IMG/VR virus record: IMGVR_UViG_3300035388_000018
Location: 1 to 58,336 of that record
Reading direction: 5' to 3' (one strand)
From: a virus
Taxonomy: Duplodnaviria; Caudoviricetes
Length of the DNA: 58,336 bases
Each line of letters starts with the position of its first letter. Within the stretch, counting starts at the first letter, position 1. Made by a program: the position numbers and the translations under genes. Of this stretch, positions 11,061 to 37,457 are shown piece after piece. Below the pieces are notes generated by a model, which saw only the letters and a program-made list of their open reading frames with translations, did not search any database and was not told the DNA's origin.

Positions 11061-11666
11061 ATGAAAACAATCGGTTTTGTAAATTTTAACCCCAAGGGCC
11101 TGAAACCCTTGACGGATGAGCTTGAAAAGAAACACAAGCTGCCCGTTGTCGATGTGAAGGCGCCCAACATGCCAAAGCGTGAGGACGGGTTCCAGGTCAA
11201 GACGGCCACCTTTACTTTTGAGAGCGGTCAAAAAATGGTCCTGAAGATCAAGGCGAACGGTACTATTTTTCAGGTCCGGCTTAACGGTAAGGTTATTCCG
11301 GTGAAAAACTCTGAAGACTTGCACGTTCCCCAGAATTTCAAAAAAGCCGTCAAGGAAATGGCGAATTTTGTCAAGAAAAACGAGCCCGCCTACACAAAAC
11401 AGAAGGCCAAGCGATTAAATAAGGCGGTGGGCCCCAAACCGAAGCGGGTTAGCGCGAGTGTAGCCAAACAACTTTCTTTCAAGAAATCTTTATTGGAAGA
11501 TTTAAAGGCGGAGGCCACCGAACTGGGGCAGGAATTGACGGAACAAAAAGGCGTTGCCGACACAAAGACGTCAAACCTTGAAGCCTTGAAAGCCGAACTT
11601 AAAACCGAACAGGACCGTAACGAGGCCCTGCAAACCGAATACAATCAACTGTTGGAGGCAGCATAA
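11061..11666 (+). CDS. hdf: Hdf (homolog of DarA fragment), capsid-internal protein
   Basis: KREDGF.VK...F.FESGQ, G.IFQV.LNGK.IP, C-terminal coiled coil; directly upstream of darA. Confidence 0.8.
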   Translation: MKTIGFVNFNPKGLKPLTDELEKKHKLPVVDVKAPNMPKREDGFQVKTATFTFESGQKMVLKIKANGTIFQVRLNGKVIPVKNSEDLHVPQNFKKAVKEMANFVKKNEPAYTKQKAKRLNKAVGPKPKRVSASVAKQLSFKKSLLEDLKAEATELGQELTEQKGVADTKTSNLEALKAELKTEQDRNEALQTEYNQLLEAA

Positions 11667-14600
11667 TGAATAATCCCTATGCCGATGGCACAAAAGTTAC
11701 CCTGGGGCTGGATCTGTTCGCCCGTGGGTTCTCTCAAAAAGAACTGGATGCCGCTTATTATGATTTAACGGCGGATCCGGATCAAGAAAGCCTGTTGTTT
11801 GAAACCGCTTCTTTTCAGGACATCGATGACGAATACAACCCGGGCGAACTGGAAATGATTCTTGAATCGATTCGGGTTAAGAAATTCTCACAGACCGCTT
11901 CAAAAATGAAAGCCCTGGTACGGGTTCTGAATAAAAACGCCAAAAAAGAGATTACGGCGGAACCGGCCATGATCGGAAAGCCCCGAAAGTCGGGTATGTT
12001 TGCGACTGTCACGGTGCAAATTCCTTTCACTGATGGGCAGGTCCTCAGTATTGTTTTTCATAGCCCCGGCGGTGATGAGCGCAAGATCCTGGCTGATGAC
12101 GCGATTATCGCTTTTCGCTGGTTGCTGAACAAAAGGGATATCACACACGCGGTATCACCGGAAAAGGGCCAGAATGTAAGCCTGGAAAAGATCAGTAAGC
12201 GGATAATGCAGATCACGGCCAAAAACTCCGAGATATTCCAGAAAAAACAGTCTGAAATCAAGGCACAAAAAACGGAACTGGCCGAAACGACCACGGCTAT
12301 TGATACGCAGGAAAAGCAGAAACAAGAGACCCTGGCCACGATCACCGAAGTTAAGGCGCAGGCCGAAACCGCTGATGAGGATATTGGTGTCCTGCAGGCC
12401 CGTATTGAAAAGCTCAAAGAGGACAATGCCGACCTTGAAAACTCTCTTGAGGCTTTAAAAAAGAAACGGGCCGAAGAAAAAGTGAGAAATGACGCGATTG
12501 ATGAAACGAAACGGCTACAGGCATTGGGCGCAGAGCATGTCCCGGGCCTTCGCTTTCAGGATACGGAAGATGCCGGCCGAACATGGGAGTATTTTCAGTC
12601 GGGCAATCTGACGCAGGACCAGTGGGACAGCTATGTCAAGGATTTGTATAAATCCGGAAAAGCTACGGAACCTGAAATTGAAAACATCGATGATATTAAA
12701 TGGGATGATCTAAAAGAACTCTTTACCTCCGCAAAAACAGAGGCAAGGCGTGAGGTCATAAGGGGTGAAATAAAAAAACGTACTGAAAATCTTGGCGGTT
12801 TATCCTTGGCGGAACTTCGGACGCTTTACAAAAGCACTGAATCCCGGGACAAACAAGATGCGGTGCTTCAGGAAATTGAAAAACGTGTCGCTAACGGTGA
12901 AGATGATGTGTCGGAAACCGAATCAAATGCCGATAAAATAAAAGGCATTCTCATCCTTGGTGACCGTCCCACCGAGGCACCTGTCGGCAGTCTGATTTTT
13001 AATGCCCCCCGGCCCATTGTCGGGCATGAAGAGTGGCAGGGTGACTTTGCCCATGGCCGTTTCTATACCGCCGTCGATCCCAAGGGGGACCGGGCGGATT
13101 GGATGATTGAAGAGAACCGCAAGATGGACGCCTATGTCGCTGAATTTCGAAATAAGGCGGAAACCTTGGCACTTGCAAAGGCCTGGTTCCGGGCAGAATA
13201 TCCGCAATATGCCGACAAACAAGAGGCCCGGGAAGATTCAGATGAAGATTATATCCGGTCTTTCCATGCGCGTATGGAAAAAATCAAGACATACGGGGAA
13301 CTCAAAAAGGTACTTGCTATATACGGTGCCATGGTCGGCAAAACGGGCACCGAACCCGAGCCCGAAAAAGAAACGGTCTCAATCCTGCCGGCAAAAGAGC
13401 AGAAGGGAAACCCGGCAAAGCGGGCGGCCAGAATCCTGCATAAGCTGAAGCTGGAAGCCCGGGCCATGAAAAACGACTTTCATGTGAAGCTGAAAAACGG
13501 GGCCTGGATGGATTTATCCATTGAAACCCATGATACCGACTCCATGGATGGTGACGGCGGCAAGCGGATCTATTTCACTCAGTACATAAAAGAGGGCGGT
13601 GACCTGATTATTGATTCTGAAATGGTTTTTGTCACCAATGCCTATACCGGATACCTGAAGCTTGCGGAGATCGGTTATCGGGGACCCATGGGCGAAGTCA
13701 GAAAAACCAATATCGGGCGGCCGGAAAGCAGCTGGGCAAACATGTTCTCAAAAAATTTGATTGATCAGGGGTATGACAAAGCGTCACCGGCCGAAGTCGA
13801 GACTGAAACCAAAAATCTGAAGCAACTCATTGCCAAAATAAAGGAAGAAAAGGATCAGAACAAAAAGGCTGACCTTTGGTATGACGCCGATCTGAACACT
13901 TCCGAAGGCAATCAGGCCGTCAGGGAAATGGTGATGTCGCTTCCGGCTGGACAGTACAAGCTACACAGCCGGGAATATGGCACAAATCTCGTAGACCTTA
14001 TGTATGAGCTTTACGGAAAAATGCCAAGTAATATGGTTGATGAGCCGTTGCTTTTAGGGTTGACAACGACAAATCCCGAAAAAGTGAATGCTACATTCAC
14101 TCACGACATGGATTCGGTGACCATAAATAGCGACAAAGCCAATGCTCCGACGATTGATGATGTCAAGGCATGGATGCGGACAAATACCAGCCTTGACCTT
14201 GACACCGAGGACCCTGAAAACGGTGAAATAGCGTATTCCACCAGGCAAAGTGGTGATGTCGGCAACGAGACACCGGGAAAAGGCGACATCGAATATGTAG
14301 GTAAAATAGCCAAAAAGCTTACAGCGCAATTCCCTGGTGTACAGACTTCTCGGGAAACGGTTGATGAGTATGTGATACTTACCATTTCCGGTTGTAAGCC
14401 CGAAATCGGCACGGGGACCGACCCCGGGCCTGATACCAAGATCGATCCCCCCGATATCCCTGAAAAAATGGTGTCAATTTTAAACGCTTTCGATGCCGGT
14501 AACATGGGTGAAGCTGATTATTCGGAAGCTTCGTACCAAATCGTGGATGAATTCACGGCGGATGAAGTCAAGGATGCCAGCGGGATATTGAAAAATTACA

Positions 14601-14929
14601 CTGAATCCGATTCCTACCGGGCCATGTCTGAGCCAGAACAAGACAAGTACAACCACTGGGCGCAGGTTTTATTTATGGCCATGGTCGCTATGAATAAAGA
14701 CATAAATAAACCGGATCCTGAACCTGAACCCGGCCCGGACCTGGACGAAGGCACTTTGCAAATAGCGGATGATCTTCTGTCCGGCGCATATGATGACATC
14801 CCCATGGACGAGCTGTCAGACCTCATTGAGCCGATCTTCGACCTTGACGAAGGTAAGTATATGGACCTGATGGAAAAAGTTGATTCTTACGCAACTGAGC
14901 TAACCAAAAAGAAAGCGCAGGCCGCATAA
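11666..14929 (+). CDS. darA: DarA antirestriction/head-internal protein with extra inserted domains
   Basis: DarA N-domain (IPF.DGQ.LSI.FHSP, AFRWLLNKRDITH.V.P), coiled coil, Pro/Glu linkers, C-terminal helical domain. Confidence 0.85.
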   Translation: MNNPYADGTKVTLGLDLFARGFSQKELDAAYYDLTADPDQESLLFETASFQDIDDEYNPGELEMILESIRVKKFSQTASKMKALVRVLNKNAKKEITAEPAMIGKPRKSGMFATVTVQIPFTDGQVLSIVFHSPGGDERKILADDAIIAFRWLLNKRDITHAVSPEKGQNVSLEKISKRIMQITAKNSEIFQKKQSEIKAQKTELAETTTAIDTQEKQKQETLATITEVKAQAETADEDIGVLQARIEKLKEDNADLENSLEALKKKRAEEKVRNDAIDETKRLQALGAEHVPGLRFQDTEDAGRTWEYFQSGNLTQDQWDSYVKDLYKSGKATEPEIENIDDIKWDDLKELFTSAKTEARREVIRGEIKKRTENLGGLSLAELRTLYKSTESRDKQDAVLQEIEKRVANGEDDVSETESNADKIKGILILGDRPTEAPVGSLIFNAPRPIVGHEEWQGDFAHGRFYTAVDPKGDRADWMIEENRKMDAYVAEFRNKAETLALAKAWFRAEYPQYADKQEAREDSDEDYIRSFHARMEKIKTYGELKKVLAIYGAMVGKTGTEPEPEKETVSILPAKEQKGNPAKRAARILHKLKLEARAMKNDFHVKLKNGAWMDLSIETHDTDSMDGDGGKRIYFTQYIKEGGDLIIDSEMVFVTNAYTGYLKLAEIGYRGPMGEVRKTNIGRPESSWANMFSKNLIDQGYDKASPAEVETETKNLKQLIAKIKEEKDQNKKADLWYDADLNTSEGNQAVREMVMSLPAGQYKLHSREYGTNLVDLMYELYGKMPSNMVDEPLLLGLTTTNPEKVNATFTHDMDSVTINSDKANAPTIDDVKAWMRTNTSLDLDTEDPENGEIAYSTRQSGDVGNETPGKGDIEYVGKIAKKLTAQFPGVQTSRETVDEYVILTISGCKPEIGTGTDPGPDTKIDPPDIPEKMVSILNAFDAGNMGEADYSEASYQIVDEFTADEVKDASGILKNYTESDSYRAMSEPEQDKYNHWAQVLFMAMVAMNKDINKPDPEPEPGPDLDEGTLQIADDLLSGAYDDIPMDELSDLIEPIFDLDEGKYMDLMEKVDSYATELTKKKAQAA

Positions 14930-14971: not shown

Positions 14972-14995
14972 ACCCGGGATAAAAGGAGTATGAGA

Positions 14996-15331
14996 ATGGC
15001 GTTATCATTTAAAGAACGGAACAAGATCCGGAAACAGATCGGACAGCAAACAGCACAGCTTGAAGGGGCCGAAGGGCTTACTTTCAAGGAAAAAAACCGT
15101 ATCCGGAAAGAAATAGGCCAATTGCTTGCACAGCTGGAAGCTGAAATTGACAAAAAACCCGAAGTCAAAAACGAAAAACTGACGGCCCTTATCGCCGGCA
15201 AGTATAATACCGAAAAGCCTGAGCGTTTCTTGGTCATTTTGCAGGAAATCGTTGACGAAATACAGGACATCGAGCCCGTAAAAGAACCTGTCATTCAGTA
15301 CATCGAAAAATATGAAGAGAAAAAAGAATGA
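14996..15331 (+). CDS. ddrA: DdrA-like protein
   Basis: About 112 aa directly after darA; duplicated N-terminal helix and L.A.K....F...L....VK C-terminal pattern as recalled for P1 DdrA. Confidence 0.65.
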   Translation: MALSFKERNKIRKQIGQQTAQLEGAEGLTFKEKNRIRKEIGQLLAQLEAEIDKKPEVKNEKLTALIAGKYNTEKPERFLVILQEIVDEIQDIEPVKEPVIQYIEKYEEKKE

Positions 15332-18231: not shown

Positions 18232-18238
18232 AAATATT

Positions 18239-18781
18239 ATGAAAGCATTTATCAGAGTAAACCAGGACAACGAAATAGTCTGTAGAGCAACTGAAACGTG
18301 CAATCTGCATGGCGAAGGCACAGATTATCTTGTTGCCGATGAATCGGCAAATCCCGGGTATTCATGGACTCCCGAGTATGAAGATCAAGGTGTCACCGTG
18401 GGGGTTTTAGGCCCTGACCCTATGGAAATTGTTTTGGCGAAGAAAGCAAATGAAATTAAAACCGCCTTTTATACGGCGGCTGCGCAGCCGGTACCCATTG
18501 AGGTCAACGGAATCACATTTCAAATGGATGGCAAAAAAGACAGTGGGCGGCTCCTGAATGACGGTATTACGTTGGCTGAGTTGGCCGGAGAGACTACCAT
18601 TGACGTCATTGATTATTACAATGTGCCGCATTTCGGGATTTCCCTGGTTGATGCTAAGGAGATCGCTAAACAACAAGCTCTTGCGTTCAGAGCTAATTAT
18701 TACATTCGCGCAGGTTTGCGTTATCAGGTTGAGGTCGCGCCTGATGTTGCTACATTGACTGCGATAACCTGGCCTACCTAA
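18239..18781 (+). CDS. Fibre assembly chaperone (DUF4376-like)
   Basis: Follows the fibre gene; C-terminal LR.QV..A.....L.AI.W. Confidence 0.65.
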   Translation: MKAFIRVNQDNEIVCRATETCNLHGEGTDYLVADESANPGYSWTPEYEDQGVTVGVLGPDPMEIVLAKKANEIKTAFYTAAAQPVPIEVNGITFQMDGKKDSGRLLNDGITLAELAGETTIDVIDYYNVPHFGISLVDAKEIAKQQALAFRANYYIRAGLRYQVEVAPDVATLTAITWPT

Positions 18782-18803
18782 TTAGCCAACGTAAAGAGGC
18801 TCC

Positions 18804-20841: not shown

Positions 20842-21198
20842 ATGGCTGATTTTCCGCAGGACATAATCGAGTTACGGTATTTTTCCGATAATTGGGGGCC
20901 GTTCTCGTTCGATTTTGGCAATCACTTGCCGCCGGGATCGAATCTTAGCCATGTTGATCTAAAGGCTTATGCCGGTGCTGTCAATCCGGCGTCGGATTTG
21001 TCTGAAGCTACTGAGATCACGAGCGAAATTATTGATAGCGATATGTTACCGCTAATCGACAAGAACACTGTGCTGGTGTATTTCAAATATCCGACATTGG
21101 GCGAATTGAAAGGGATAAAAGCTACATTGTTGTTCGAATTTACCCTGGATACGACTGCCCGGCATGTGGCTTATTTCCAGTATGTCAAAATAATATAA
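20842..21198 (+). CDS. Small putative fibre-adaptor/structural protein
   Basis: WGPFSFDF...L..G..L pattern; last gene of the cassette. Confidence 0.5.
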   Translation: MADFPQDIIELRYFSDNWGPFSFDFGNHLPPGSNLSHVDLKAYAGAVNPASDLSEATEITSEIIDSDMLPLIDKNTVLVYFKYPTLGELKGIKATLLFEFTLDTTARHVAYFQYVKII

Positions 21199-21321
21199 AT
21201 GTGGAAAACGTGAAAGCCAAAGCCGGTTATAAAAAACAAAAGTCTGAAAGCTCAACCGGCAAATGGTTGAAACGATATTTTGAAAAACGAACTTGTCGGA
21301 AAAGAATAGGAATTGGTGTAA

Positions 21322-23427
21322 ATGCCGCTTAAACTCAAAACGATTTCCCCCCGAAATAGAGTGGAAAAAGCAAAAGGTTTCCCGGATATCCGAAGGATTA
21401 TCTGCCAGCGTTTTGAAATCAATGAAAATATGTGGCAACTTTCCGCCGATGCCGGTTTGAGGGCTATCCGGGGGCTAAAGCGGGCGGAACAAAGCACAGA
21501 CCCCCTTGATAGGGCCTTGCAAGGGGAAAGCTTGTTCCGGGCAATGCCAATGCCGGATACGTTTGAAAATATGGGCGTCGATATTGACGACTTCAAGCAC
21601 AGGGCAAAAGCCCTTTACCCCAAGGGTGAAAAAAACGGTATAGAATCGGATATTGGGACTATCGCTTACCAGCATTACACCGAAGCCGGGGCACTGCCAG
21701 GGGATGTTTTAAGTCTTGTCGACACGATTAAGGCGGCGGATAAACAGACCAGCGACAAGATAAAGGAACAAGGGGAATTAGTTAATAAAAATTACGGAAA
21801 ACTGAATGCGGCTATCGCAGAATACCGCCGGGATGCAGGGTGGGACCGAGAACGGGCGAAATTCTACAAGGTACACAGCGAGGATGTGGCGCCCCGGGCG
21901 GATGCCGGCACCGAATTTCAGGATGGCCGGATAGATAGAATCGAGTTTAATAAAAAAATAGCGGCCCTTAACGAAAAACTCCGAGCGGCGACCCGTGCAT
22001 GGAACGAATTTGCTAATAAAGTACAGGCACACGAAATAGGCCTACATAGTAAATACGTTGGGAATAGTGAACATGTGCAACAAGAAACCGATAACAAGGA
22101 AATGGATGCAGCATTACAGGCGTTTTATGCTAAAACGGTATCCGTGGCCTTAGAATCATCCCCCATATCTGAAAAAGACGCGCAGGACTGGGCCGGAAAG
22201 CAAGTGATCGCTCCGGCCTTGAAAAGCAGGCTCAAAAAGTCGGGTTATGGTGAGGCACAATTTAAGGATGATACGGCTGAATTTTATCGGTTGTGCGGCG
22301 GCCGGGTTGGGACAATCGAGTTTAAAACAACCAGGAAAAAGCGGTCATTTGCAATGGTCGAAAGTAACCAGGTCCATTTAAGCGCAAAGTCCGATAAGCG
22401 GACCATCTTCCATGAAATGGCCCATCTACTTGAAAACCAGCCAGTTGTTAAGGCGGCTAATAACCGTTTTATAGATAAAAAAACAGGCGGTCGTCAAAAA
22501 ATGGCGTCGCTCCGGTCGTTAACCGGGAACCGGGGGTATAAGTCGAACGAAAAGGCGTTTGTTGATCATTTCTTTGATCCGTATGTCGGTAAATATTACC
22601 CGGGCGGAATAACCGAAGTGGGTAGCATGGGGTTCCAGATGTTTGCAGACCCTAAAAAAATGGCAATGCTTTATGACCAGGACCCGGAAATGTTCCAATA
22701 CATTTTAGGGGTGGTTCGTAGTCCGATGACCAGCGTCGAGAAAGAAGCGGTTGACCTGATGGTAACGAAACGTCAAGAAAATATTGACGCGGTTGCGGTC
22801 GGTAAAAAGTTTTATGCGGCACTGGATAAAAAAAGTAAGAACATAGATAAAATAATCGAGGGGTCGTATTATCGGTTTGAAGGAACGTTGAGCCGGTTCA
22901 GGGTGATGTTTAAGGATGATTATATACTGGCTGCCACGGTTACCAAGAAAATAGCGCAGCAATTTTTATATATGTACTTGTGGCAGCTGTCTATATCCCC
23001 AAGGGTAGGCAGGCCAACTGACTCTAATTTGGAATATTGTATTAAAAACAATATCATCCCCCATACACTCAAGATCGATGACAGATACAAAACAATCCCA
23101 GATATCACCGTCTTGGACGTGGATAAAATGCCAAAAGATTTGGCTGAATTTACTGCCGGGGCTGATGAATTTATCAAATGGTTGAAGGGCAAAGCGTTCA
23201 GTCTTTCCCCGTATTCGTATGATACCGAGAATTATGAATATTCCAAGGGCGGCAAATCCATCATGGCTAAAGTGCGGCGGGGGGAACACGGAACCGTTTT
23301 AATAGAAGATAGAACGGACTTCGAGAATTTAAGCGTGGACTCTTTGTATCGATTTAGAGAAAAATCCGTAAAAGAAATATTCAAATCGGCCAGGGCTGAT
23401 ATCCAAAAGATAATAGGGGACGAATAA
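21322..23427 (+). CDS. ddrB: DdrB-like head-internal protein with zincin HExxH motif
   Basis: EFYRL.GG, RSFA, IFHEMAHLLE, D.F..PYVGKYY..TEV.SMG.Q; position in the dar cluster. Confidence 0.7.
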   Translation: MPLKLKTISPRNRVEKAKGFPDIRRIICQRFEINENMWQLSADAGLRAIRGLKRAEQSTDPLDRALQGESLFRAMPMPDTFENMGVDIDDFKHRAKALYPKGEKNGIESDIGTIAYQHYTEAGALPGDVLSLVDTIKAADKQTSDKIKEQGELVNKNYGKLNAAIAEYRRDAGWDRERAKFYKVHSEDVAPRADAGTEFQDGRIDRIEFNKKIAALNEKLRAATRAWNEFANKVQAHEIGLHSKYVGNSEHVQQETDNKEMDAALQAFYAKTVSVALESSPISEKDAQDWAGKQVIAPALKSRLKKSGYGEAQFKDDTAEFYRLCGGRVGTIEFKTTRKKRSFAMVESNQVHLSAKSDKRTIFHEMAHLLENQPVVKAANNRFIDKKTGGRQKMASLRSLTGNRGYKSNEKAFVDHFFDPYVGKYYPGGITEVGSMGFQMFADPKKMAMLYDQDPEMFQYILGVVRSPMTSVEKEAVDLMVTKRQENIDAVAVGKKFYAALDKKSKNIDKIIEGSYYRFEGTLSRFRVMFKDDYILAATVTKKIAQQFLYMYLWQLSISPRVGRPTDSNLEYCIKNNIIPHTLKIDDRYKTIPDITVLDVDKMPKDLAEFTAGADEFIKWLKGKAFSLSPYSYDTENYEYSKGGKSIMAKVRRGEHGTVLIEDRTDFENLSVDSLYRFREKSVKEIFKSARADIQKIIGDE

Positions 23428-25265
23428 TGGAATCTGAATTTACAGACGGCTTTTCGTACCAGTTTGAGTTAAAAACCCTGGCAGGCCCTGGGGTGATAAC
23501 AGTTGCCCCGACACAATGGGATGAACCGGGGAAAATCACCATTGAAGATTATGGGTCCAGTGACATCCATTATTGTATTTCGAGCCTTTTTGACAAACAC
23601 GGTTTCGGCATGACCGGTGTTTGTATGCAGATGGGTACTGAATCCCCTGTTGACATCAACCGTGTGTTGCAGATGTACGCGGGAAAAGAAGGGGAAATGG
23701 TCCTTTCTTACGATTTAATCGGGTTTAATCCTGATGAAATGGCCGAAGGTGGCAGCGTTCTTGAAAGCGCGGTCACTTTCAAAGAGAAAAAATTCACACT
23801 GCAGGACCGGTATCAATTCCAGGGCCTGCCCATTTCCATTGAAAATAAAAAAGGATCGTATCGAACCGGTATGTATCCGGACGGCCATGAATGGAAAACC
23901 TTCATGTATTTTGATTATGGGTATATCCGGAAAACCAAGGGTGAAGACGATGAAGGCATTGACGTGTATGTGGGTCCGGACCGGACGGCAAAACACGTTT
24001 ACATCGTGAAACAGCATAAAATTGAAGCGGTCAAGAAATGGGAGGGCGCCTATTGCCCTAAATGCGGTGAGCATGCCCGGGATTGCGCCTGTAAAGAATT
24101 TTTCGACGAAGATAAGGCGTTTGTAGGCTTCGGGAATAAAGAGGCCGTTATCAGCGCATACGGCAAGCAATACGACTCCCCTCTTTTTATCGGGCCGATA
24201 TCCACCATGACGGTCGATGATTTTAAAAAACTGATGACCGGGCCAAAAGAAAAGGTGAAAGTCCCTTTGCAATTTGTGTCTGAATCAGCTGGGGATTGGC
24301 GGAGCGTCATAAGAAACGCGGAGACGTTCTCTTCCATCGTGGCCGTTTTTAAAGATAAAATGATTGGCCCGGCGCCCGAGCAAGAAAACACATCCGCCGA
24401 GGAAAGGGCAATAAACCGGCCGATCCTGAACAACTTTTTCAAGGGCGTGAAGCTGAAAAAGGCTGAATACAAGGTGTTTGAAATTGGTGAAGACAATAAA
24501 CCCGCGTATCGGCCGGTAACCGGTTGGCGGTATGGTCATTTTGCGACACAAAAGGTCGACGGAAAATGGGTAACGACACATATCAAGACAGGGCAGGGCG
24601 TGGGGAGAGTCCAGGGGAAAAAGCTTGATGCCGTCGAACACATGTGGCGCCTTGAAAAGCTGGGGTCTGAATGGGATTTCGATAAGTCTGAAGATATGCC
24701 TGAAGACCTAGCCCAGCACGCCATGGAAATCCGGGATGACATCGAAAATGTTAGGTTGCCGGCCGAATTGATACCGGCTGAAACACCAGCACCGGCACCG
24801 CAGGGGAGCGAGACCCCCCTGTATCACGGCAGTCCGGTAAAAGACCTGAAAACGATACAGGCGGGTTCATGGTATAGCCCGGTAAAGGCTTTAGCGGCGG
24901 CGTTTGCCCGGGGCAGGGGAAACAAAAAAGATCCTGGGCAGATATACGGCGTCAATATGGACCTGGGCGGCTACCAATGGGCCGATTTAACGGCTTTTGG
25001 GATGGATGAGTATGTCACACCAAAACAAATGGCCGTTGCCACTGGTGTTGACCTGGCGGAACTCATGCAGGCATTTCAAAAAGAATCCACATTGAAGGAT
25101 ACTCTTGAAGATGGCCTTATCGCATTGCGCCATCTTGTTGACCAAAAGCCGATTATGGACTTTTACAAGGCAAAGGGCTTTGATGGATTCAAGGCAAAGG
25201 AAGGGTTAAAGTCACCCACTGATTATATCGACACCTATAAATTGTTTTTCAGCCAAGCTTTATAA
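23427..25265 (+). CDS. Polyvalent protein: inorganic pyrophosphatase-like domain plus C-terminal ADP-ribosyltransferase-like domain
   Basis: GLPISIEN.KGS.R.G...W.T.M..DYGYI..T.G.D.E.IDVYVGP...FDEDK...GF (InPase of polyvalent proteins); LYHGS...GSWYS...A..FA...IY.V...GFDG (ART-like). Confidence 0.75.
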   Translation: MESEFTDGFSYQFELKTLAGPGVITVAPTQWDEPGKITIEDYGSSDIHYCISSLFDKHGFGMTGVCMQMGTESPVDINRVLQMYAGKEGEMVLSYDLIGFNPDEMAEGGSVLESAVTFKEKKFTLQDRYQFQGLPISIENKKGSYRTGMYPDGHEWKTFMYFDYGYIRKTKGEDDEGIDVYVGPDRTAKHVYIVKQHKIEAVKKWEGAYCPKCGEHARDCACKEFFDEDKAFVGFGNKEAVISAYGKQYDSPLFIGPISTMTVDDFKKLMTGPKEKVKVPLQFVSESAGDWRSVIRNAETFSSIVAVFKDKMIGPAPEQENTSAEERAINRPILNNFFKGVKLKKAEYKVFEIGEDNKPAYRPVTGWRYGHFATQKVDGKWVTTHIKTGQGVGRVQGKKLDAVEHMWRLEKLGSEWDFDKSEDMPEDLAQHAMEIRDDIENVRLPAELIPAETPAPAPQGSETPLYHGSPVKDLKTIQAGSWYSPVKALAAAFARGRGNKKDPGQIYGVNMDLGGYQWADLTAFGMDEYVTPKQMAVATGVDLAELMQAFQKESTLKDTLEDGLIALRHLVDQKPIMDFYKAKGFDGFKAKEGLKSPTDYIDTYKLFFSQAL

Positions 25266-25356
25266 CCCGGGCCCGGATCGTGGGCAGGGCGGTTTTTATC
25301 AAAAAAATGTATCGTTTTAACTTTATTTAAAGAAAAAAAGTTTAAAAGGGAGTACA

Positions 25357-25608
25357 ATGCCTAAAATAAAAGGTTTTTTCCAGGATGCGGTTGGCAATTT
25401 TTCAATGATGCGGCTTTTGTCCTTCATTATCACGATCACGGTAATGTTGATTTGGGCCGTGGAATGTTTGCGTAAAAATGAATTTCTTGGATGGGGGGAC
25501 AGCCAAGTTTACATACTTATCGCGTGTATCGTTCCCACTGTCCTACAAAAGCTGGTGGAATCCGGCGGGCTGCAGTTCCTATTCGGCAGCAAAAAGGCGA
25601 CTAAATGA
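25357..25608 (+). CDS. Putative holin (2 TM)
   Basis: 83 aa, S.MRL motif followed by hydrophobic helices; overlaps the endolysin start. Confidence 0.6.
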   Translation: MPKIKGFFQDAVGNFSMMRLLSFIITITVMLIWAVECLRKNEFLGWGDSQVYILIACIVPTVLQKLVESGGLQFLFGSKKATK

Positions 25609-26207
25609 AAATCCCATCTGTACCAGACATTATTAAGGCCATGAGGAACAAGGGCTATACCGTCTACAGCGATCCGGACGGTTATGACCTGAATATAGTA
25701 GGCATCCGGGCAAAAAACATTTTTGCAAATCGGTTTGATGATCTGCTGACGGTGTTTTATCGGTTTCAAGATCAGTGGGGTTATGTAGCTTTCCCGGCAA
25801 CGACCGACCCGGGAACATATTGGTTGGAAAATCCCATGGTGAAACTGGGCACCGCCATTCTTGCCCCGGGACAATACCGAGCTGCATACAAAATAGGAAA
25901 ACACCATGGCAAATATGATGCGTTGGTACAGACCAAGCCTGTCACGGTTTTTAGGGACCGGAACCGGGATAATAGGTTGGATGTCAAGGACGCCATCACG
26001 GATACCGGCATGTTCGGTATCAACATTCATCACGCTACACGAAAAGGCAAATCGAACAATGTCGAAAAGTGGTCGGCTGGTTGTCAGGTGATCCAAAATT
26101 CAAACGAATTTGAAGTTCTCATGTCATTGGCCCGGGTTGGCCGGGAACGCTTCGGGAATTGCTTTACATACACTCTACTGGACGAAAAAGACATTAAGGA
26201 TTCTTAA
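25605..26207 (+). CDS. Putative endolysin, L,D-transpeptidase (YkuD)-like Cys peptidase
   Basis: LNIVGIR, N.FDD, TTDPG, PGQY, GINIH...WSAGCQV (H-x14-SAGC); flanked by two membrane-protein genes. Confidence 0.6.
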   Translation: MKIPSVPDIIKAMRNKGYTVYSDPDGYDLNIVGIRAKNIFANRFDDLLTVFYRFQDQWGYVAFPATTDPGTYWLENPMVKLGTAILAPGQYRAAYKIGKHHGKYDALVQTKPVTVFRDRNRDNRLDVKDAITDTGMFGINIHHATRKGKSNNVEKWSAGCQVIQNSNEFEVLMSLARVGRERFGNCFTYTLLDEKDIKDS

Positions 26208-26209
26208 CG

Positions 26210-26749
26210 ATGATTTCAATTTTTTCCTCATTAGCAAGCGGCGGCATTCTGGGCGCCATTGGCAGTGGCATTACAAACCTTTTCGATTTCCTGAAACAAA
26301 AGCAGGCCAACAAACAGGCGCTTGAAGTCCGAAAGCTGGAGATTGCAGTTACCAGTAAACGCCATGAGCACGAATTGGCCCTGGCCGGCATGAAGCAGAC
26401 CATGGACATGCAAAAAGGCGCGGATAAGATCCAATCGGCCAGTTATGAAATGGATAAGGCCACATATACGGACACAAAAAGTGCAAACTGGGTTTCACAG
26501 ATCCTTTTGACGACTGTTGATGTACTTCGGGGGTTGGTCCGGCCGGCGATGACCGGCTACATGGTCTGGGAAGTCCATGTTTTGCGAACATCGGTTGAAG
26601 CGATATTGACCAGTTCCGGTGTTACGCTGATTTCAGCACCGCAGGCATTGGCAATCTATAGCGATATAGTCAACATGATTCTATTTCTGGCATCAGCGTC
26701 TTTTTCATGGTGGTTCGGTACAAGAATAAAAAACAAAGCCGTTGCATAA
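26210..26749 (+). CDS. 3TM holin-like membrane protein
   Basis: RGLVRP..T and C-terminal WWFG.R motifs, with TM segments. Confidence 0.65.
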   Translation: MISIFSSLASGGILGAIGSGITNLFDFLKQKQANKQALEVRKLEIAVTSKRHEHELALAGMKQTMDMQKGADKIQSASYEMDKATYTDTKSANWVSQILLTTVDVLRGLVRPAMTGYMVWEVHVLRTSVEAILTSSGVTLISAPQALAIYSDIVNMILFLASASFSWWFGTRIKNKAVA

Positions 26750-26827
26750 CCTGTATTACCAGCGGTTTAAAGATATTTAAGCACTATACAAATGTATAAG
26801 TGCAAACCAGTTAAAAAGGATTGTAAT

Positions 26828-29800
26828 ATGGGTAATCAAGTGTCGTTATTTGGAGATGATTTGATTCTGGAACGGGCGGCGTTGCCGGCAGAGCAGATCC
26901 GGGAAGCAACCTCTTACAAAGAGATTGCCACGGTGTTTGCAAAAATCTTTAACCTATCGGATGTCCCGGGAGTGGTTGGGCCAACGGCTTACAAAGATCC
27001 CAAAAGCGATTTTGGGTTGAAGGTCCGGGGCGTAAAAACACGGGAAAAGATTAACGAACAGGCAAAGGCAATATTGAAAAAGGCTGATTCCTTAAAAGAT
27101 TTGTCTGAAGAGGATGTCGACTTTTTGAAACAATATTCCGGCCGGGGCGGTTTGACAGAGAATTCACAGTTCGAATATTACACGCCTACACCCATTGCAG
27201 AAGGCGTTTGGGATGTTCTTAAACTCCACGGTTTTGAAAACGGCAACGTCCTTGATCCGTGTACCGGCGCTGGCGTATTTCCCACCACGAAACCAGACGG
27301 CGTTTTAATGACCGGCGGTGACATCGATCCGGTTGGATCCAAAATAGCGGCCCTGTTTAACCCCGAAGATTCGATTAAAAACCGTTCATTCGAACAAATT
27401 GCGGTGGCAACCGAGGATAATACTTTTGATTCGGTCGTTGGCAATGTGCCTTTTGGGGATGCCCGGGGAAAGGCTATCTTTGATGACCCGGCATATAAAA
27501 CTGAAAAACGGATCGAGCGATATTTCCTTCTCAGGGCCATGGACAAACTTAAACCCGGGGGGCTGGCCTGCCTGGTGGTGCCGATTAACATTGTCGGGGC
27601 AAAAAACGACAAATGGAAACGCTTTCGAATTGCCATGAGCAAAAAGGGTGAATTCCTTGGCGCCCATAAACTGCCGTCCAAGTCCTTTGGTGGTCAGGGC
27701 ACTGATACTGTGGTTGATATCGCCGTGTTTAAGAAACATCCCCAGGACCTTCTTGAAAAAATCGACAATCTTGAATTCGAAACCCTGCAGGAAACCAATG
27801 TCATATGGGATGAGTTCATTGACGGCCGATACTGGCTGGGTGAAGGAAAACGGTTCATTCAGGGTAAGTATGTCCCGAAAACGGCCGGGGACCGGTGGAG
27901 CCGGGAAACAGTTGACGGTGACATCGATCCTATCACGATCAAGAAAAAACTGGCCGTGCATTTCGCTTCCCGGATTGACTGGGATGCACTGGAAACCGCC
28001 GAGGCTGAAGTTAAGAATTACGCGGAAGGTGACCGCAATATTATTAACGGCATCGAGTATGAATTCGTTGACGGCGATTGGCAACGGGTTCACCAGACCG
28101 AAAAAAATGATATCCGGATTGATGAGAATAAATATGGTGCTGGCACAATGGCAGAATTAAAGGCACTCTTATCCTCTCCGGAAGGCGCCCTGCAGCTAAC
28201 TGCAAAACAGTTGTTCGCTATCTATAAAACGTGGCCGGACCTGCTTTCCCCGCTTCAAAAGGATGCGGTTGAATTTTCCATGAGTCAATCTGATGAAAAA
28301 TTCCATGAACAGGCATGTAGGGGTACGATTATCGGTGGTCTTCTGGGCCGGTTGAAGGCGAATCCGGATGAAAACGAAAGAGCCCGCCTGCAAGAAATGA
28401 TGGCCGCTGAAATTGATAAGTACGGACACCCGAAAAACAATAGTCATTTGTGCTTGACGGGGTCCTCTTCACGGCAGTTTGGGCTTTTCCTGAATTCGGT
28501 TGATGAGAAAGGGCAGTTTTCCGACTTCCTGGCCGGCACTCAGGATACTGAGAAAAGCGAATTTGACCCGACAAACATTCAATCTATTGTGGAACATCTT
28601 TTTGTTCGTGAAGGTATCCACCAAATCGAGCTTGAAGATATCAAAAAGCTTTATTCCGGGAAAATGGGTCTTGATTCCCTGGGGGATCTGGCACAGGTCG
28701 ATAACATTGCCATTACCGCAGATGGGATGCTTATGCCGTTTGGTCGATACACGGCCGGCAACATATACACAAATATTCAGGCAATGACCGATGCCATGGC
28801 CGATGAGGAAGACGACCGCCTGAAAGACAAGTGGATGCAGCAAATTGAGGCCATTAACAAGAAGCGGAAAATAACCGTCGCGGAGGATATCAGTTTTGGC
28901 CTGCAGGATAAATGGTATCCGAGAGGGTTTCTTGTTGATTTTCTCCGTGAAAACGGTTGGCCGAATGTTAAATACGGTTATTTTGAAGATGTCGAGAAGG
29001 AAGACTCTTTTGACGGGACAAAAAACATTGTCAGTGAATTTGTCGAAGATGCCAATGCAAAAGACGGGGAATTTATCGGCATAGGCGGATCCGGCTTTCC
29101 TAAACAGCTTCTTAAATATCTGAACGGCGGCAAGATCACATCTTCGAAGCAGGATCTTATCGAACAGTACAAGAACGAAGCCAATGTCATGACGGAAAAC
29201 TTCAATGCCTGGATGCAGCAACATCAAGACATGGATCAGTTGACGGCTTCTTATAACCAGCGGTTCAATGCCTTTCTTCCGTATGAATATGAAGACACGG
29301 ACCTGCACCTTGAAGGATTTTCGAAACAGGTAAAACTACATGGCTTTCAGAACTCCGCAATCAGGCGGCTTTCTGAAGAGGGGCGGGGGATTCTGGGTTT
29401 CGACGTCGGACTTGGGAAATCCTACGCGGCGGTTGCACTGGCTCAATATAATAAACAAATGGGCAGATCTAAAAAGACATGTATTATAATGCCCGATTCT
29501 GTGCTGGCGAACTGGTATCATGAAATCAATCACCTTGTCGGCAATATGAATGACGTTTTGTTTGTCGGGTTTGAGCCCAAGATGGATAAAAATGGCGTAA
29601 TCACCAGGGAAGTCGTAAAAGACGAAAAGGGAGAGCCCAAGGTCAACAAGTTCACCGGTGAGATCGAACAACAGGACGTGCTGATAAAGCGTAAATCCAA
29701 GGCCGATATCTGGAAAAAAATGTGGGAGATCCCGACAACCGGCAAGTCACTGGTCGTCATGACAAAGGAAAAGTTCGGTTCCATTCCGATGCGGCCCGCA

Positions 29801-33171: not shown

Positions 33172-33576
33172 ATGGAAAACATCGTAAAGCCGACCAAAGA
33201 GGATTTACAACCCGTCATCGATGAGGCGTGTAAGAGCCAGACGGCGGAGCAATGGCGGGAAAATGTCTTAAACTCCATCAAGGTTATGCTGGGGAAAAAG
33301 CCTATCCGGTACCGGGGGTTCGGTCCTTACTGGTGGTTGGTCAAAAAAATGTTTGTCGATCAAGAGTTTTTTGAATTCGGGGAAGATATCGACAAACAGT
33401 GGTTCGATATGACCGATTACGGCGATGCCACCTTAAACCTGGCGGCGGCGTTCGCCTATGAAGATGCCCGGTTTCAAACTGTCAATATTTATGAAAGCAC
33501 CCATACCGTAGAGACGGACACCGGCACCATGGATTATGTCCTGTCTGATGAGGATATGGAAATCATGGGAAAATAA
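33172..33576 (+). CDS. ulx: Ulx (aids DarB packaging in P1)
   Basis: KP.K..L, P..YR.FGPYW..VKK, FG..ID, L.AA..Y...RF motifs; directly after darB. Confidence 0.8.
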   Translation: MENIVKPTKEDLQPVIDEACKSQTAEQWRENVLNSIKVMLGKKPIRYRGFGPYWWLVKKMFVDQEFFEFGEDIDKQWFDMTDYGDATLNLAAAFAYEDARFQTVNIYESTHTVETDTGTMDYVLSDEDMEIMGK

Positions 33577-34726: not shown

Positions 34727-34759
34727 AAATGGCCGCCACTTGATTGCGGCGGCCATTTT
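34727..34759 (+). terminator. Stem-loop/terminator before portal
   Basis: AAATGGCCGCC-N10-GGCGGCCATTTT. Confidence 0.6.
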
Positions 34760-34790
34760 CATAATTAGTGAGTACGGCGAGGGGCTACCC

Positions 34791-36458
34791 ATGTCTAAAA
34801 AGAAATCTAAGATAAAAACCATAGAAAAAATTTCGCTTCTATGGGGCCGTCTTTTCGGTGGTTACGACAGCGAACGGAACGATCAAAGTAGCGATATTGT
34901 TGATATCAATTCGCAGGGCAGCGCAAGCGAGTTATTACCGCGGCCCGGCAACATGCTGGCCACGGAAGAGATTATAAAAGCGGCTGAAATCGGGACCGCT
35001 GAAACGGAAAAACTTGCAGAGACGTTCCCCTTGGAGCGTTTGGCAAAATATGGCGTTTTGACCAGCATGGACCGGGACCCTACCATTAACGCGGCCATTA
35101 CCCTGCATGTCAACCAAGCTTTAAGTGCAAAAACAGCAACCGGTGAGATTATTTCCATTGAATCGACTTCTGACAAAGATAATAAGTTTGTCAATGATCT
35201 TCGGGATACATTCAAGGAAATGATAAACAAAGATTGCCAGAAGTGGGCCTATAATGCCGCCTTGCATGGTATTTGGTATGTCCGGCCCTATGGATTTAAA
35301 GGCACGGGCATAACTCATGTCCGGAGTGACTTTTACACGCATCCCCGTTTCATTAAAGAGTATGAGCACGGCGGCCGCCTGGCCGGTTACACGCATGCCT
35401 ATCAGAATATTGCGAAAGAGGGGCGTATCGAGTTGATGGAGCCCTGGAAATTCGTCTCTTTTAAAATCCCTAACATAAAAAACGACACACTGATTGAGCC
35501 TATCCGGTTTGACCAAGAAAAGTTTGATATCGGTGACGATGATTGTTTGGCGGAAGAGCTTGTAGAAACGCAGAGCTATGGCAAGTCTATCATTGAAACG
35601 GCCTTTGATCCATGGTTTGACCTTCAAAACGCAATCATGAGCCTCAATATGTCCCGGCGCAATGCGGCCCGCCTTGAGCGTGTGGTGGGCGTCAATACCG
35701 GTAAGCTTTCTCCCCTGAAAGCGGCTGAATACCTAAATTCAGTATCGGGCCAGCTAAAAAAAGCGAATGAGCAACACGCAAAGCAAGCCATCACCAAGGG
35801 GTTTTTCCAGACTGTCATCAACCACCTGATTCCCATCTTCGGTGATCGCGGCCGGCTTGACATTTCAACCGTGGAAGGGTCCCCGAATATCGAAGGCCTT
35901 GAGGACGTAATGTTCCATGTCAAACGACTGGGCGGCGCCCTGGGGGCGGATCCTTCTTTGTTGGGGTTTGGAGACATGCTTTCCGGTGGTTTGGGCGAAG
36001 GCGGCTATTTTCGTATGTCGATTATGGCGGCCGTTAAATCAAATTTGATTCGGCAGGCTATCAGGGATGGATTGGAAGAGCTGTTTAACATCCACATTGC
36101 CTTGAAATACGGTCAATACTTTTTACCCGGTGAACGGCCTTGGCGTATCGTTTTTAATTCAATTTCGACGGCCGTGGAGCGTGAAGAGCAGGAGAACATG
36201 GAAGGGCGGGTTAATTTTGCAACGATGCTTGCCGGATTGGTCCAGACCGTTGATCCTGAATTCTCAAAAATTGAATGGAATGCCTTTAATAACTATCTGT
36301 GGACAGACATTTTAAAGGTTGATGAGGAAAAATATAAGGCCATTTTCCCGAAAAAAATGGAAGCTCCGCCGGCGGAAGGGGAAGAGCCCTTAATGGAGTC
36401 GGCTATTGAAGATCAGGTAACCAAAATAATTGATAAATTTTATGAGAGGGGTGTTTAA
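34791..36458 (+). CDS. prt: Portal protein (P1 Prt-like)
   Basis: YT.P.FIKEYE, ETQ.YG.S..E, G.ED..FH...L...LG.D...LG..D.LSGGLGEGG; upstream of pro. Confidence 0.85.
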   Translation: MSKKKSKIKTIEKISLLWGRLFGGYDSERNDQSSDIVDINSQGSASELLPRPGNMLATEEIIKAAEIGTAETEKLAETFPLERLAKYGVLTSMDRDPTINAAITLHVNQALSAKTATGEIISIESTSDKDNKFVNDLRDTFKEMINKDCQKWAYNAALHGIWYVRPYGFKGTGITHVRSDFYTHPRFIKEYEHGGRLAGYTHAYQNIAKEGRIELMEPWKFVSFKIPNIKNDTLIEPIRFDQEKFDIGDDDCLAEELVETQSYGKSIIETAFDPWFDLQNAIMSLNMSRRNAARLERVVGVNTGKLSPLKAAEYLNSVSGQLKKANEQHAKQAITKGFFQTVINHLIPIFGDRGRLDISTVEGSPNIEGLEDVMFHVKRLGGALGADPSLLGFGDMLSGGLGEGGYFRMSIMAAVKSNLIRQAIRDGLEELFNIHIALKYGQYFLPGERPWRIVFNSISTAVEREEQENMEGRVNFATMLAGLVQTVDPEFSKIEWNAFNNYLWTDILKVDEEKYKAIFPKKMEAPPAEGEEPLMESAIEDQVTKIIDKFYERGV

Positions 36459-37457
36459 ATGCCGGAAACAATAAAATGCAAGTTTAATTTATTCGAAGAG
36501 GGCCGGGAATATACCGGGCATCACCGAAAGTATGTTCTTGAAAATGCAAGGCGTGTCTGTTACGCGCCCGGGACCAGGGAAGGGCTCAGACTTCGGGAAA
36601 AATTAGGATACCTGGGCCACGGCCGGCGGGAAATGGCCGGCAAGATCCGGATCGGTGAAGTCGAAAAAGTGGAAATGCCGGATGGGTCCATGGCGGTTGT
36701 CGAAAATGTCCCAAGCAATGTGACCACGTTTTTTGAAATCGACAAAGATGGAAACGTTGACCACCACCAAGAAATTTTAGGCACGAACCAGCCCGGTAAA
36801 ATTGTTTCGGGCCTGAACCAATCCAAGGTGGGCGGTTTCTCTTGGGCTATGGGTGGCAGTGACGGCGGGCAGCATGGTGCCACACGAGTTTCGTCGTTTG
36901 AGGGGTTTGACTATGTTATGAACCCGGGTTTTTCTGCAAACCGGGGGTATGTCCTTGAATCAGCTGGGGCCCGGGATATGATACTTGAAAGTATTTGTAA
37001 AACCGGGATCGATGACAAGGTGGCTGAAAAATACCTTGAAAATTGGGCTGCATCGGCACAGGTCCAGGCAATTGAACTTGAGGAAAAGCTTGCATCGGCT
37101 GAAATATTCGAGTCGGCTTTGATTGAGAAAAGTGAGGCCTTAGCCGCTGAAAATGAAGCGTTTAAAAAGCAGGCTGAAGGAAGGCAGGCTTTAATCACTG
37201 AATGTGCCAAAAATAGCACGGTGGTTATCCCTGCCGGTGTTGCGGATGCACTTATCAGTATGGCGAATGAGGATGATTTTAATAAGCTGGTCGGCTTTTT
37301 TGAATCCGCCGGTCATGCTGACCTTTCCCGGTATCCGTTACCCGGGGTTGAACGGGAAAAAATAATGGTTGAAAAGTATCCGGTCAAAAGAAAGCCTGAG
37401 TATGGGCAGGCGGCGGCCGGTGTTGATTTTGGTGGCAAATCTTTTATCGTTCGATAA
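36459..37457 (+). CDS. pro: Prohead protease (P1 Pro-like)
   Basis: GR.Y..H.R.Y, GY.GHGRR, NVP...T, H.QEIL...PG..V....S..GGFSWA.GG, GFDYV..P. Confidence 0.88.
   Translation: MPETIKCKFNLFEEGREYTGHHRKYVLENARRVCYAPGTREGLRLREKLGYLGHGRREMAGKIRIGEVEKVEMPDGSMAVVENVPSNVTTFFEIDKDGNVDHHQEILGTNQPGKIVSGLNQSKVGGFSWAMGGSDGGQHGATRVSSFEGFDYVMNPGFSANRGYVLESAGARDMILESICKTGIDDKVAEKYLENWAASAQVQAIELEEKLASAEIFESALIEKSEALAAENEAFKKQAEGRQALITECAKNSTVVIPAGVADALISMANEDDFNKLVGFFESAGHADLSRYPLPGVEREKIMVEKYPVKRKPEYGQAAAGVDFGGKSFIVR

Follow-up and report, generated by a model that had tools for sequence, protein, structure and literature searches.

Can a short peptide shared by otherwise different phage proteins serve as a label for loading them into the capsid? 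This question is raised by a stretch of 58,336 bases of phage DNA (IMG/VR record IMGVR_UViG_3300035388_000018, positions 1 to 58,336), in the following referred to as the window. Judging by its genes, it comes from a distant P1-like myovirus that has the full Dar (defence against restriction) gene set, i.e. Hdf, DarA, DdrA, an MPTase/DdrB-like protein, DarB, Ulx, portal and Pro. Three of its proteins, the MPTase protein P0001, the polyvalent protein P0002 and the DarB-like protein P0003, share a 14-residue peptide. An initial annotation had described it by the pattern [IV]xxAx[STG][FY]xxIxx[VI][FI] and had interpreted it as a portable tag that in P0002 lies within a polyprotein and goes together with a protease glutamate. 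Comparative data from beyond the window bore this out. The tag is part of a leader that exists and is conserved, that moves between modules and is restricted to cargo of the dar locus, and whose glutamate motif is that of the capsid maturation site. On balance, we consider it somewhat more likely than not that this leader is a capsid-loading label, combining a protease site with a docking helix for Dar cargo, with polyproteins being cut and a DdrA-like protein as a tentative candidate for the receptor.

Translation confirmed the three peptides at 21361-21402 (VEKAKGFPDIRRII), 26897-26938 (IREATSYKEIATVF) and 24309-24350 (IRNAETFSSIVAVF), where they start at residue 14 of P0001, residue 36 of P0003 and residue 295 of P0002, respectively. 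These three sites are also the only matches (exactly 3) of the pattern in the six-frame translation of the whole window. The tag of DarB (26861..26950; on the + strand, like the tagged and P1-like genes of the window and their parts described here) reads LILE27|RAALPAEQ and continues with the helix core I36-F53, if numbered from the ATG at 26792; counted from the ATG at 26828, the core comprises residues 24-41. In the copy inside P0002 (24273..24362), FVSE286|SAGDWRSV is followed by the helix core I295-M312. The copy of P0001 (21361..21414) is diverged, with a helix core V14-F31 and no cut-site motif upstream. Thus, the peptide does begin 9 residues after the glutamate in the two proteins for which this had been noted, from E27 to I36 in DarB and from E286 to I295 in P0002.

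Because the pattern had been written after the fact, the sites were tested with models for which no window sequence had been used. A hidden Markov model (HMM) of 53 N-terminal segments of DarB homologues, run against the 1063 six-frame open reading frames (ORFs) of the window, placed DarB first (E 2.5e-6) and the internal site of P0002 second (E 0.024), with the next match at E 0.59. Iteration, in which the model was twice enlarged by sequences of other phages but still contained none from the window, brought the P0002 site to E 0.0039 and then to 2.8e-4. BLASTP of residues 260-345 of P0002 against homologues also matched their N-terminal tags, the best being P0048 82-106 with E 0.001. An 18-column score matrix ranked the sites of DarB, P0002 and P0001 as 1, 2 and 3 of 57,135 positions, with 34.5, 16.2 and 12.8 bits and the next position at 8.5. 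When the residues of these ORFs were shuffled 300 times, the top score was at least 16.2 bits in 2.3% and at least 12.8 bits in 16% of the shuffles, so that the P0001 site is not significant on its own score. P0001 orthologues are encoded upstream of DarB in many related loci, and residues 14-31 of P0001 share alignment columns with the clear tags of those in L003, L026, L040, L013, L029, L022, L035 and L008. It is this agreement in position that supports the P0001 copy.

Altogether, these sequence comparisons firmly establish the copies in DarB and P0002, and that in P0001 is a diverged, weak one. Conservation in orthologues accordingly holds for the N-termini of DarB and for the tags of the P0001 orthologues, whereas P0001's own copy remains weak. 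No Pfam family was found over the tag segments even at E<=10. A recent DNA repeat or recombination among the three window copies was ruled out by zero nucleotide similarity, and for the same reason selection acts on the peptide.

To describe the element outside the window, a word-based search was carried out with the first 400 residues of DarB. It yielded 466 homologues, and the counts for DarB homologues given here and below refer to the 120 listed of these 466. The leader has about 35 residues and consists of hydrophobic-hydrophobic-Glu, then [R/K/S]-A, often D-W, and then an amphipathic helix with the consensus [IV]xxAx[ST][FY]x[DE]Ixx[VI]FxxxF. A loosened pattern occurs in 53 of the listed homologues, mostly at residues 10-20 after M-I-L-E-[RK]-A, and in longer fused forms of DarB the element is internal, still after I-L-E or F-E. 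With the profile tag3, 85 of the 120 show the tag ahead of their methylase motif. The consensus helix is amphipathic, with a hydrophobic moment of 0.53 compared with 0.50 for the 95th percentile of shuffles. When the N-terminal 350 residues of DarB, numbered from the TTG at 26861, were modelled by AlphaFold2 (AF2), the tag formed helices at 10-14 and 19-29 with a predicted local distance difference test score (pLDDT) of ~70; residues 36-53, ahead of the conserved part, have a pLDDT <50. A tblastn search of GenBank phages with the first 110 residues of DarB gave no match; with 400 residues it reached the DarBs of the P1 group, in alignments that mostly begin downstream of the tag.

Next to the homologues themselves, related loci were compared. 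For this, 41 IMG/VR loci containing DarB and up to 10 kb per side were fetched with the alignment of 34 DarBs. Ulx-like and DarA-like genes were found in 37 loci each, portal in 31, Hdf-like in 27, and DdrA-like and Pro-like genes in 25 each, with contig ends accounting for some of the misses; nearly every locus also encodes an MPTase protein. Searching the 8,627 six-frame ORFs of these loci with the DarB-only HMM revealed 10 non-redundant sites at E<0.01 in 7 ORFs other than DarB, each just upstream of DarB and on the same strand, and all 45 rows at E<1 were on the DarB strand as well. The iterated profile found 48 domains at E<0.01 in 23 of the 41 loci, all on the + strand, with 0 in reversed and 0 in shuffled ORFs. 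Several ORFs carry multiple copies: three in a 2053-residue ORF of L004, two in an 878-residue ORF of L006 and three in a 3891-residue DarB fusion of L007.

The initial annotation had also proposed, as a check, a profile scan for enrichment in dar-locus proteins, and such enrichment was seen in five whole related records (410,223 bases; 58.8-96.6 kb each; three at least 90% complete). All 16 matches of the tag alignment at E<=1, five of them new and some of the others contained in the scanning profile itself, lie at the start of DarB or at most ~8.3 kb upstream of it, and none was found elsewhere in the five records.

Important insight can be gained from the proteins to which the leader is attached. 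The tagged ORFs upstream of DarB carry the Pfam domains LPD3, ART-PolyVal, ddrB-ParB, PBECR3 and InPase, and are thus polyvalent proteins. In all, the leader heads the DarB methylase-helicase, MPTase proteins, ddrB-ParB, InPase, ART-PolyVal and unknown modules. It is located ~75 residues ahead of each ddrB-ParB domain and at a constant distance of ~90-92 residues ahead of the YSGRGG motif of DarB. The ddrB-ParB domain of the relatives is located in other tagged ORFs and not in the MPTase protein.

P0002 itself shows several such modules in the order N-domain, InPase, tag, small module and ART-PolyVal-like domain. The InPase domain (about residues 126-272, 23802..24242) matches Pfam PF18823 with E 2e-30, and PHROG alignments cover 130-276. 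The small module after the tag (residues 325-450, 24399..24776) is homologous to residues 426-555 of P0128, 849-979 of P0132 and 490-626 of an ORF of L026. The ART-PolyVal-like domain (residues 454-612, 24786..25262) was modelled by AF2 with a mean pLDDT of 83.4. In BFVD, this model had 29 matches at E<=0.001, several of them named ART-PolyVal, the best with E 3.6e-7 and 4.3e-7 and a template modelling (TM) score of 0.68. Against the PDB there was no match at E<=0.001, and the weak ones were mostly H-Y-E ADP-ribosyltransferases. The best PDB match was chain B of 9k3a, a cyanophage pre-ejectosome (E 5.2e-3, TM 0.40), which might faintly hint at the role of an ejected protein. The Atlas yielded no more than leads. 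Pfam ART-PolyVal (PF18760) reached 13.5 bits on this domain with a cut-off of 31.2 (E 0.12), and it was also unmatched in the 6 homologues scanned out of 9. Thus, from the earlier label of P0002 as a PPase/ART protein, the InPase and the ART fold were supported by Pfam and BFVD, respectively, whereas the Pfam family ART-PolyVal was not. An exhaustive search with residues 320-612 found 9 representatives, the last 155 residues recurring in very large polyvalent proteins; a word-based search with residues 255-612 found only P0002 itself.

Three comparisons describe how the tag is distributed among these modules. Residues 11-288 of P0002, i.e. N-domain and InPase, are 62% identical to a 308-residue protein of the closest relative L003, and this InPase protein is untagged, as it stops 8 residues past PLQFVGES, where the tag of P0002 starts. 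This InPase module also occurs in L009, L011 and L024, where a diverged tag connects it to DarB in a fusion protein. Finally, the leader of P0132, FFESAGDWRARIRNA, is nearly identical to that of P0002 and stands at the same distance before the module homologous to P0002 325-450. Because of the untagged InPase of L003, the InPase-DarB fusions and the P0132 leader, the tag, as judged from these alignments, travels with the module downstream of it.

The second part of the leader is the glutamate site ahead of the helix. It was analysed in 41 non-redundant tags, consisting of 38 from the loci (after removal of four duplicates among the loci and of one site lacking a clear core) and the 3 window copies. 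The motif [ILVMF][ILVMFY]E is found within 22 residues upstream in 26 of them, with a background of ~12%. The distance from the Glu to the tag is 9-12 residues in 19 of these 26, and in 24 the Glu is directly followed by R, K or S. Tags that lack the motif mostly stand at true N-termini of MPTase proteins, with nothing ahead of them to be removed, and a few have one-residue variants, e.g. ILTES, or FVSES in P0002. In alignment A2 the Glu is invariant only by selection, as its 27 segments were chosen for having it.

This motif equals the mapped maturation site of the P1 capsid, namely hydrophobic-[L/F]-Glu plus a small or basic residue. The major capsid protein of P1 is cut between E120 and S121 (PMC9024508); the site reads AMLE|SV in the P1 record (gp23), and in 5 of 5 related phages the aligned capsid site reads VLE|A, ILE|A, LLE|A, ILE|S and ILE|S. 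P1 DarA loses an N-terminal piece of ~9 kDa, and its cryo-electron microscopy model begins at residue 70 (PMC12810830). P1 DarA has a single such motif, LLE68|A, and phage D6 DarA has MFE65|S at the aligned position, one of three. The DarA-like protein of the window carries the same motif as a candidate protease site, MILE67|S (11858-11866). A further candidate site, VLE113|S (23757..23765), is at the boundary of N-domain and InPase in P0002; it is conserved in relatives, where the position reads IFE|S (L003), VLE|S (L013) and VLE|S (L040), and in L026/P0128 a tag follows. The reading of P0002 as a polyprotein that would be cut by a Pro-type protease is therefore well motivated at the sequence level. 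With respect to the candidate protease glutamates of the initial annotation, LILE|R of DarB fits the mapped motif, whereas FVSE|S of P0002 is a variant of it.

Two further proteins show similar sites. P0001 has one cut-site-like motif, MVE347|S (22354-22362, residues 345-347), shortly before HEMAH. In P1 Pro (L002:19014-20033), hydrophobic-hydrophobic-Glu precedes S, A or K at 7 sites, as expected if this protease trims itself.

As a possible partner of the helix, the DdrA-like protein was considered. In the window it has two LSFKE..IRK.IGQ repeats in its N-half and a conserved C-half (alignment A3), and all but 2 of the 23 tag-positive loci (21) also have a DdrA-like gene. The N-termini of the listed DarB homologues fall into four classes: 83 carry just the tag, 24 carry neither the tag nor DdrA, 11 are fused to the N-half of DdrA and 2 to the whole DdrA. 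None of the 11 DarBs with a fused N-half has a tag or a DdrA C-half, and both whole-DdrA fusions (P0008, P0032) retain the tag, after DdrA. The N-half type begins with M.LSF.EKR... and two short repeats (P0005, P0085-P0087, P0097, P0099, P0102, P0108, P0112, P0115). One of them, P0005, is 79% identical to the window DarB, and because it is so close, the swap between N-half and tag would have occurred at least 2 times. This fusion pattern is as expected if the tag binds the C-half of DdrA and the N-half docks.

Structure prediction of the complex, which had been proposed as a check, gave limited backing. The DdrA-like protein with the tag scored 0.42 (runs 0.42, 0.15 and 0.42; best of 3 controls 0.01), which corresponds to a verdict of ‘weak support’, in a score range described for the prediction tool as wrong in most cases unless the pairing was already likely. 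In calibration, 58 of 80 solved complexes passed the mark, as did 2 of 110 mismatched pairs; just 7 of those 80, but both mismatches, did so with scores of 0.60 or below. Contact agreement between runs was at least 6% and partner pLDDT at least 52. Besides the score range, two points weigh against DdrA as the partner: its co-occurrence with the tag is confounded by relatedness, and the 11 fusions possibly derive from as few as two events. DdrA, in particular its C-half, is thus a tentative candidate for the tag receptor.

Some DdrA-like proteins end in an extra I/V-M-E-S or I-T-E-S plus a short hydrophobic helix, e.g. AIMESVMGEVFGKLW; their genes are L004:3529-3927, L006:7039-7446, L007:1234-1620 and L025:9385-9774. 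By its sequence, this C-terminal extension looks like a further cut site with a mini-helix.

How could such a leader work? According to the capsid-loading explanation, a clade of P1-like phages would use it for the Dar cargo set. Its first part, hydrophobic-[L/F]-Glu, then R/K/S and then Ala, would be where the P1-type prohead protease (Pro) cuts. The amphipathic helix that follows after 9 to 12 residues, as the second part, would dock the cargo inside the procapsid, with a flexible linker to the cargo domain. Polyvalent proteins such as P0002 would be polyproteins that are loaded and then cut after the Glu at module boundaries, and each freed module would retain its own docking helix at the new N-terminus. 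The likeliest receptor would be the C-half of the DdrA-like protein, while its N-half would bind the DarA/Hdf layer under the capsid shell. We infer cleavage at the Glu sites, targeting to the capsid and the receptor role of DdrA; the capsid address in particular is suggested by the position of the leader, its restriction to Dar cargo, the protease motif and the co-variation with DdrA. The strictest form of this proposal would be a two-part cargo grammar, in which a cut site and a helix binding the DdrA C-half on a DarA/Hdf lattice cause any acquiring domain to be loaded, freed and injected. This form is possible, although we regard it as doubtful.

Several observations weigh against the capsid-loading explanation. 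The motif is missing in 15 of the 41 tags, and 18 of the 41 loci have no tag at E<0.01. FVSE of P0002 departs from the standard cut-site motif and is part of the conserved end of the InPase module. Stand-alone DarBs starting at M-I-L-E would lose just four residues, which is odd for a pure cut site. The P0001 copy was undetected by every HMM, including the all-tag model and the model of MPTase-protein tags. Furthermore, the profiles tag2, tag3 and A2 were partly trained on loci later scanned, and only the tests with the DarB-only HMM, on the window ORFs and on the 41 loci, are fully independent. The N-termini of P1 DarB and DdrB had been proposed as members of such a profile, and here it failed: neither is matched by any HMM, and in the score matrix P1 DarB reaches -2.0 bits (rank 226) and P1 DdrB 2.5 bits (rank 44) of 85,768 positions. 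Likewise, Gonzales et al. found no consensus among P1 Dar N-termini by BLAST (PMC9024508). The N-terminus of D6 DarB is marginal, with 8.7 bits and rank 3 of 26,641, and there is no HMM match in D6. The top matrix site of D6 (L050) is internal, at about residue 2009 of DarB near the C-terminal part (13.9 bits), and could be chance or a real element.

Other explanations have to account for the same data. The leader could be a processing signal only, with Glu and helix forming an exosite for Pro or for the DdrB-like MPTase, and loading depending on other determinants. The fixed spacing of motif and helix in 19 of 26 tags and the identity of the motif with capsid maturation sites would fit this. 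MPTase-driven processing of polyvalent proteins has been proposed (PMC5512222), and nearly every locus encodes an MPTase protein. However, tags also stand at true N-termini of MPTase proteins (L003, L026, L040, L008, P0001), which have no motif and nothing to remove. Stand-alone DarBs retain the helix though cleavage removes just 0-15 residues, and the presence of a fused DdrA N-half in place of the tag is more readily explained by docking than by cutting. Altogether, a role in processing only seems rather improbable to us.

Alternatively, the helix could act after loading, as an ejection or translocation signal or as a handle for phage DNA, a host target or other cargo. It would indeed remain on the mature protein, unlike a T4-type signal (PMC9024508), and all its carriers are expected to be injected. 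Nevertheless, nothing in the data points to a tail or host partner, and the co-variation with DdrA, a head-internal protein in P1 (PMC12810830), directs attention to the capsid interior; such a late function is quite unlikely. Finally, the resemblance could have no common function, the helix being a chance or structural N-terminal feature or a recombination remnant. This might be argued from the P0001 copy, which alone is within chance (16% of shuffles), and from the late definition of the pattern. The independent profiles, in contrast, recover DarB, P0002 and many further sites, all of them in dar loci and in the coding frame and strand, the window copies are devoid of nucleotide similarity and the domains downstream of the tags are unrelated. 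The explanation is already largely refuted by these observations and its probability is very low.

Further genes of the Dar set are encoded around the tagged genes. The Hdf-like gene (11061..11666) matches phrog_1620 with E 3.5e-36 and is 33% identical to P1 Hdf (BLASTP E 3.5e-15). It is followed by the DarA-like gene of 1087 residues (11666..14929; phrog_1926, E 7.7e-46), whose residues 65-266 align with P1 DarA 66-282 (BLASTP E 1e-24), and by the DdrA-like gene of 113 residues (14990..15331; phrog_1855, E 1.3e-7 over residues 3-107). The Ulx-like gene (33172..33576) matches phrog_1629 with E 8e-32 and P1 Ulx with BLASTP E 6e-19, and the portal gene (34740..36458) matches phrog_1497 with E 2.9e-143 and P1 Prt with BLASTP E 1e-100. 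The Pro-like prohead protease (36459..37457) is the candidate enzyme for the hydrophobic-Leu-Glu sites; it is 34% identical to P1 Pro (BLASTP E 1e-44) and belongs to phrog_1801, the same PHROG name that is carried by pro in the P1 record. Further PHROG matches in the window include sheath, tube, baseplate and PmgB/PmgC/PmgG-like proteins. As to DNA, no close relative was found, with zero matches for megablast of 21000-27500 against GenBank phages and plasmids.

Of the tagged genes, P0001 (21322..23427, 701 residues; phrog_20397, E 3.7e-52) encodes a zincin MPTase protein with a HEMAH motif, considered as DdrB-like cargo. Residues 276-448 align with the MPTase domain of P1 DdrB (786-971; E 3e-7), while 0 Pfam families were found at E<=0.01, hence no ddrB-ParB domain; the label DdrB-like therefore applies to the MPTase domain and not to ddrB-ParB. 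P0002 (23427..25265) has 612 residues. P0003 (26792..33094, an ORF of 2100 residues) is DarB-like as initially annotated, with phrog_1685 and phrog_11801 both at E 0 and the Pfam domains SNF2 and Eco57I. Its most likely start appears to be the ATG at 26828, because AAAAGGA and then 7 nucleotides precede this ATG, with the same spacing in L003. The TTG at 26861 had been the first idea for the start, and the comparison with L003 favours the ATG instead.

Two groups of neighbouring genes were noticed in addition. Between the gene of the polyvalent protein and darB, three small genes (25357-26749) encode products of 83 residues (hydrophobic by eye), 200 residues (endolysin-related phrog_33083, E 2.4e-16) and 179 residues (phrog_6637). 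Together they might constitute a lysis cassette within the block of cargo genes, and no counterpart was found in the related loci (0 of 41). The region 15328-20438 encodes a 967-residue protein that has phage tail repeats and matches fibre-like PHROGs, as well as a 544-residue protein without a family; the latter has no counterpart among the 41 related loci. These genes sit between those of the DdrA-like and the MPTase protein, a place that in P1 is inside the darA operon.

In terms of meaning, capsid-targeting peptides have so far been described for T4 and for P1 DarB (2022), with no shared signal found among the P1 Dar proteins (PMC9024508). The window and its relatives supply a consensus shared by different cargo, a marking of polyprotein module boundaries beside a capsid-protease motif, and a candidate receptor in the C-half of DdrA. 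If true, this would provide a rule for predicting injected phage proteins and, in laboratory strains, a means of bringing proteins of choice into phage heads. The two-part grammar, if it holds, would moreover explain the assembly and evolutionary turnover of polyvalent proteins, as well as the replacement of the leader by the DdrA N-half in some DarBs. Literature searches returned no description of a shared leader, the supplements of PMC9024508 and PMC5512222 being outside their scope.

How does the leader compare with known systems? In P1, the first 30 residues of DarB suffice to send TetR-mCherry into capsids and the first 9 do not (PMC9024508). Like this signal, the leader is within the first ~30 residues of DarB, before the conserved pre-methylase region and in the context of the same Dar gene set, and a signal length of more than 9 and at most 30 residues is compatible with a helix at residues 8-25. 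Unlike here, the N-terminus of P1 DarB has no cut-site motif, whereas the present element is common to several cargo proteins and is repeated inside polyproteins. Because the P1 DarB N-terminus shows no sequence match, the link between the tag and the P1 targeting signal would be one of position and context only. As a side observation, P1 DdrA, DdrB, Ulx and DarB all start with a Leu-Ser pair at residues 3-5 (MTLS, MSLS, MATLS and MNKLS).

The internal proteins of T4 carry a short N-terminal capsid targeting sequence that is transferable to foreign proteins, as used in the PEPP system (PMC9024508). The leader resembles it as a short N-terminal peptide tied to a prohead-protease site after Glu, on internal injected proteins. 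The T4 signal precedes its cut site and is removed. In contrast, the helix described here lies after the Glu, would stay on the mature cargo and recurs internally.

With regard to polyvalent proteins, these were predicted by Iyer et al. 2017 to be packaged and processed, processing being ascribed to the embedded MPTase (PMC5512222). P0002 and the other tagged ORFs are similar in carrying InPase, ART-PolyVal, LPD3, ddrB-ParB, PBECR and MPTase domains. They differ in that the module boundaries have a defined leader with a capsid-protease motif, as no recurring leader is described in the covered parts of that account (PMC5512222). Finally, loading in P1 follows an order of Hdf and DarA first, then DdrA and then the cargo (Piya et al. 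2017 as cited in PMC12810830). Such hierarchical loading would fit DdrA as an adaptor, and the pairing of the tag with the DdrA C-half proposed here would be a new element of it.

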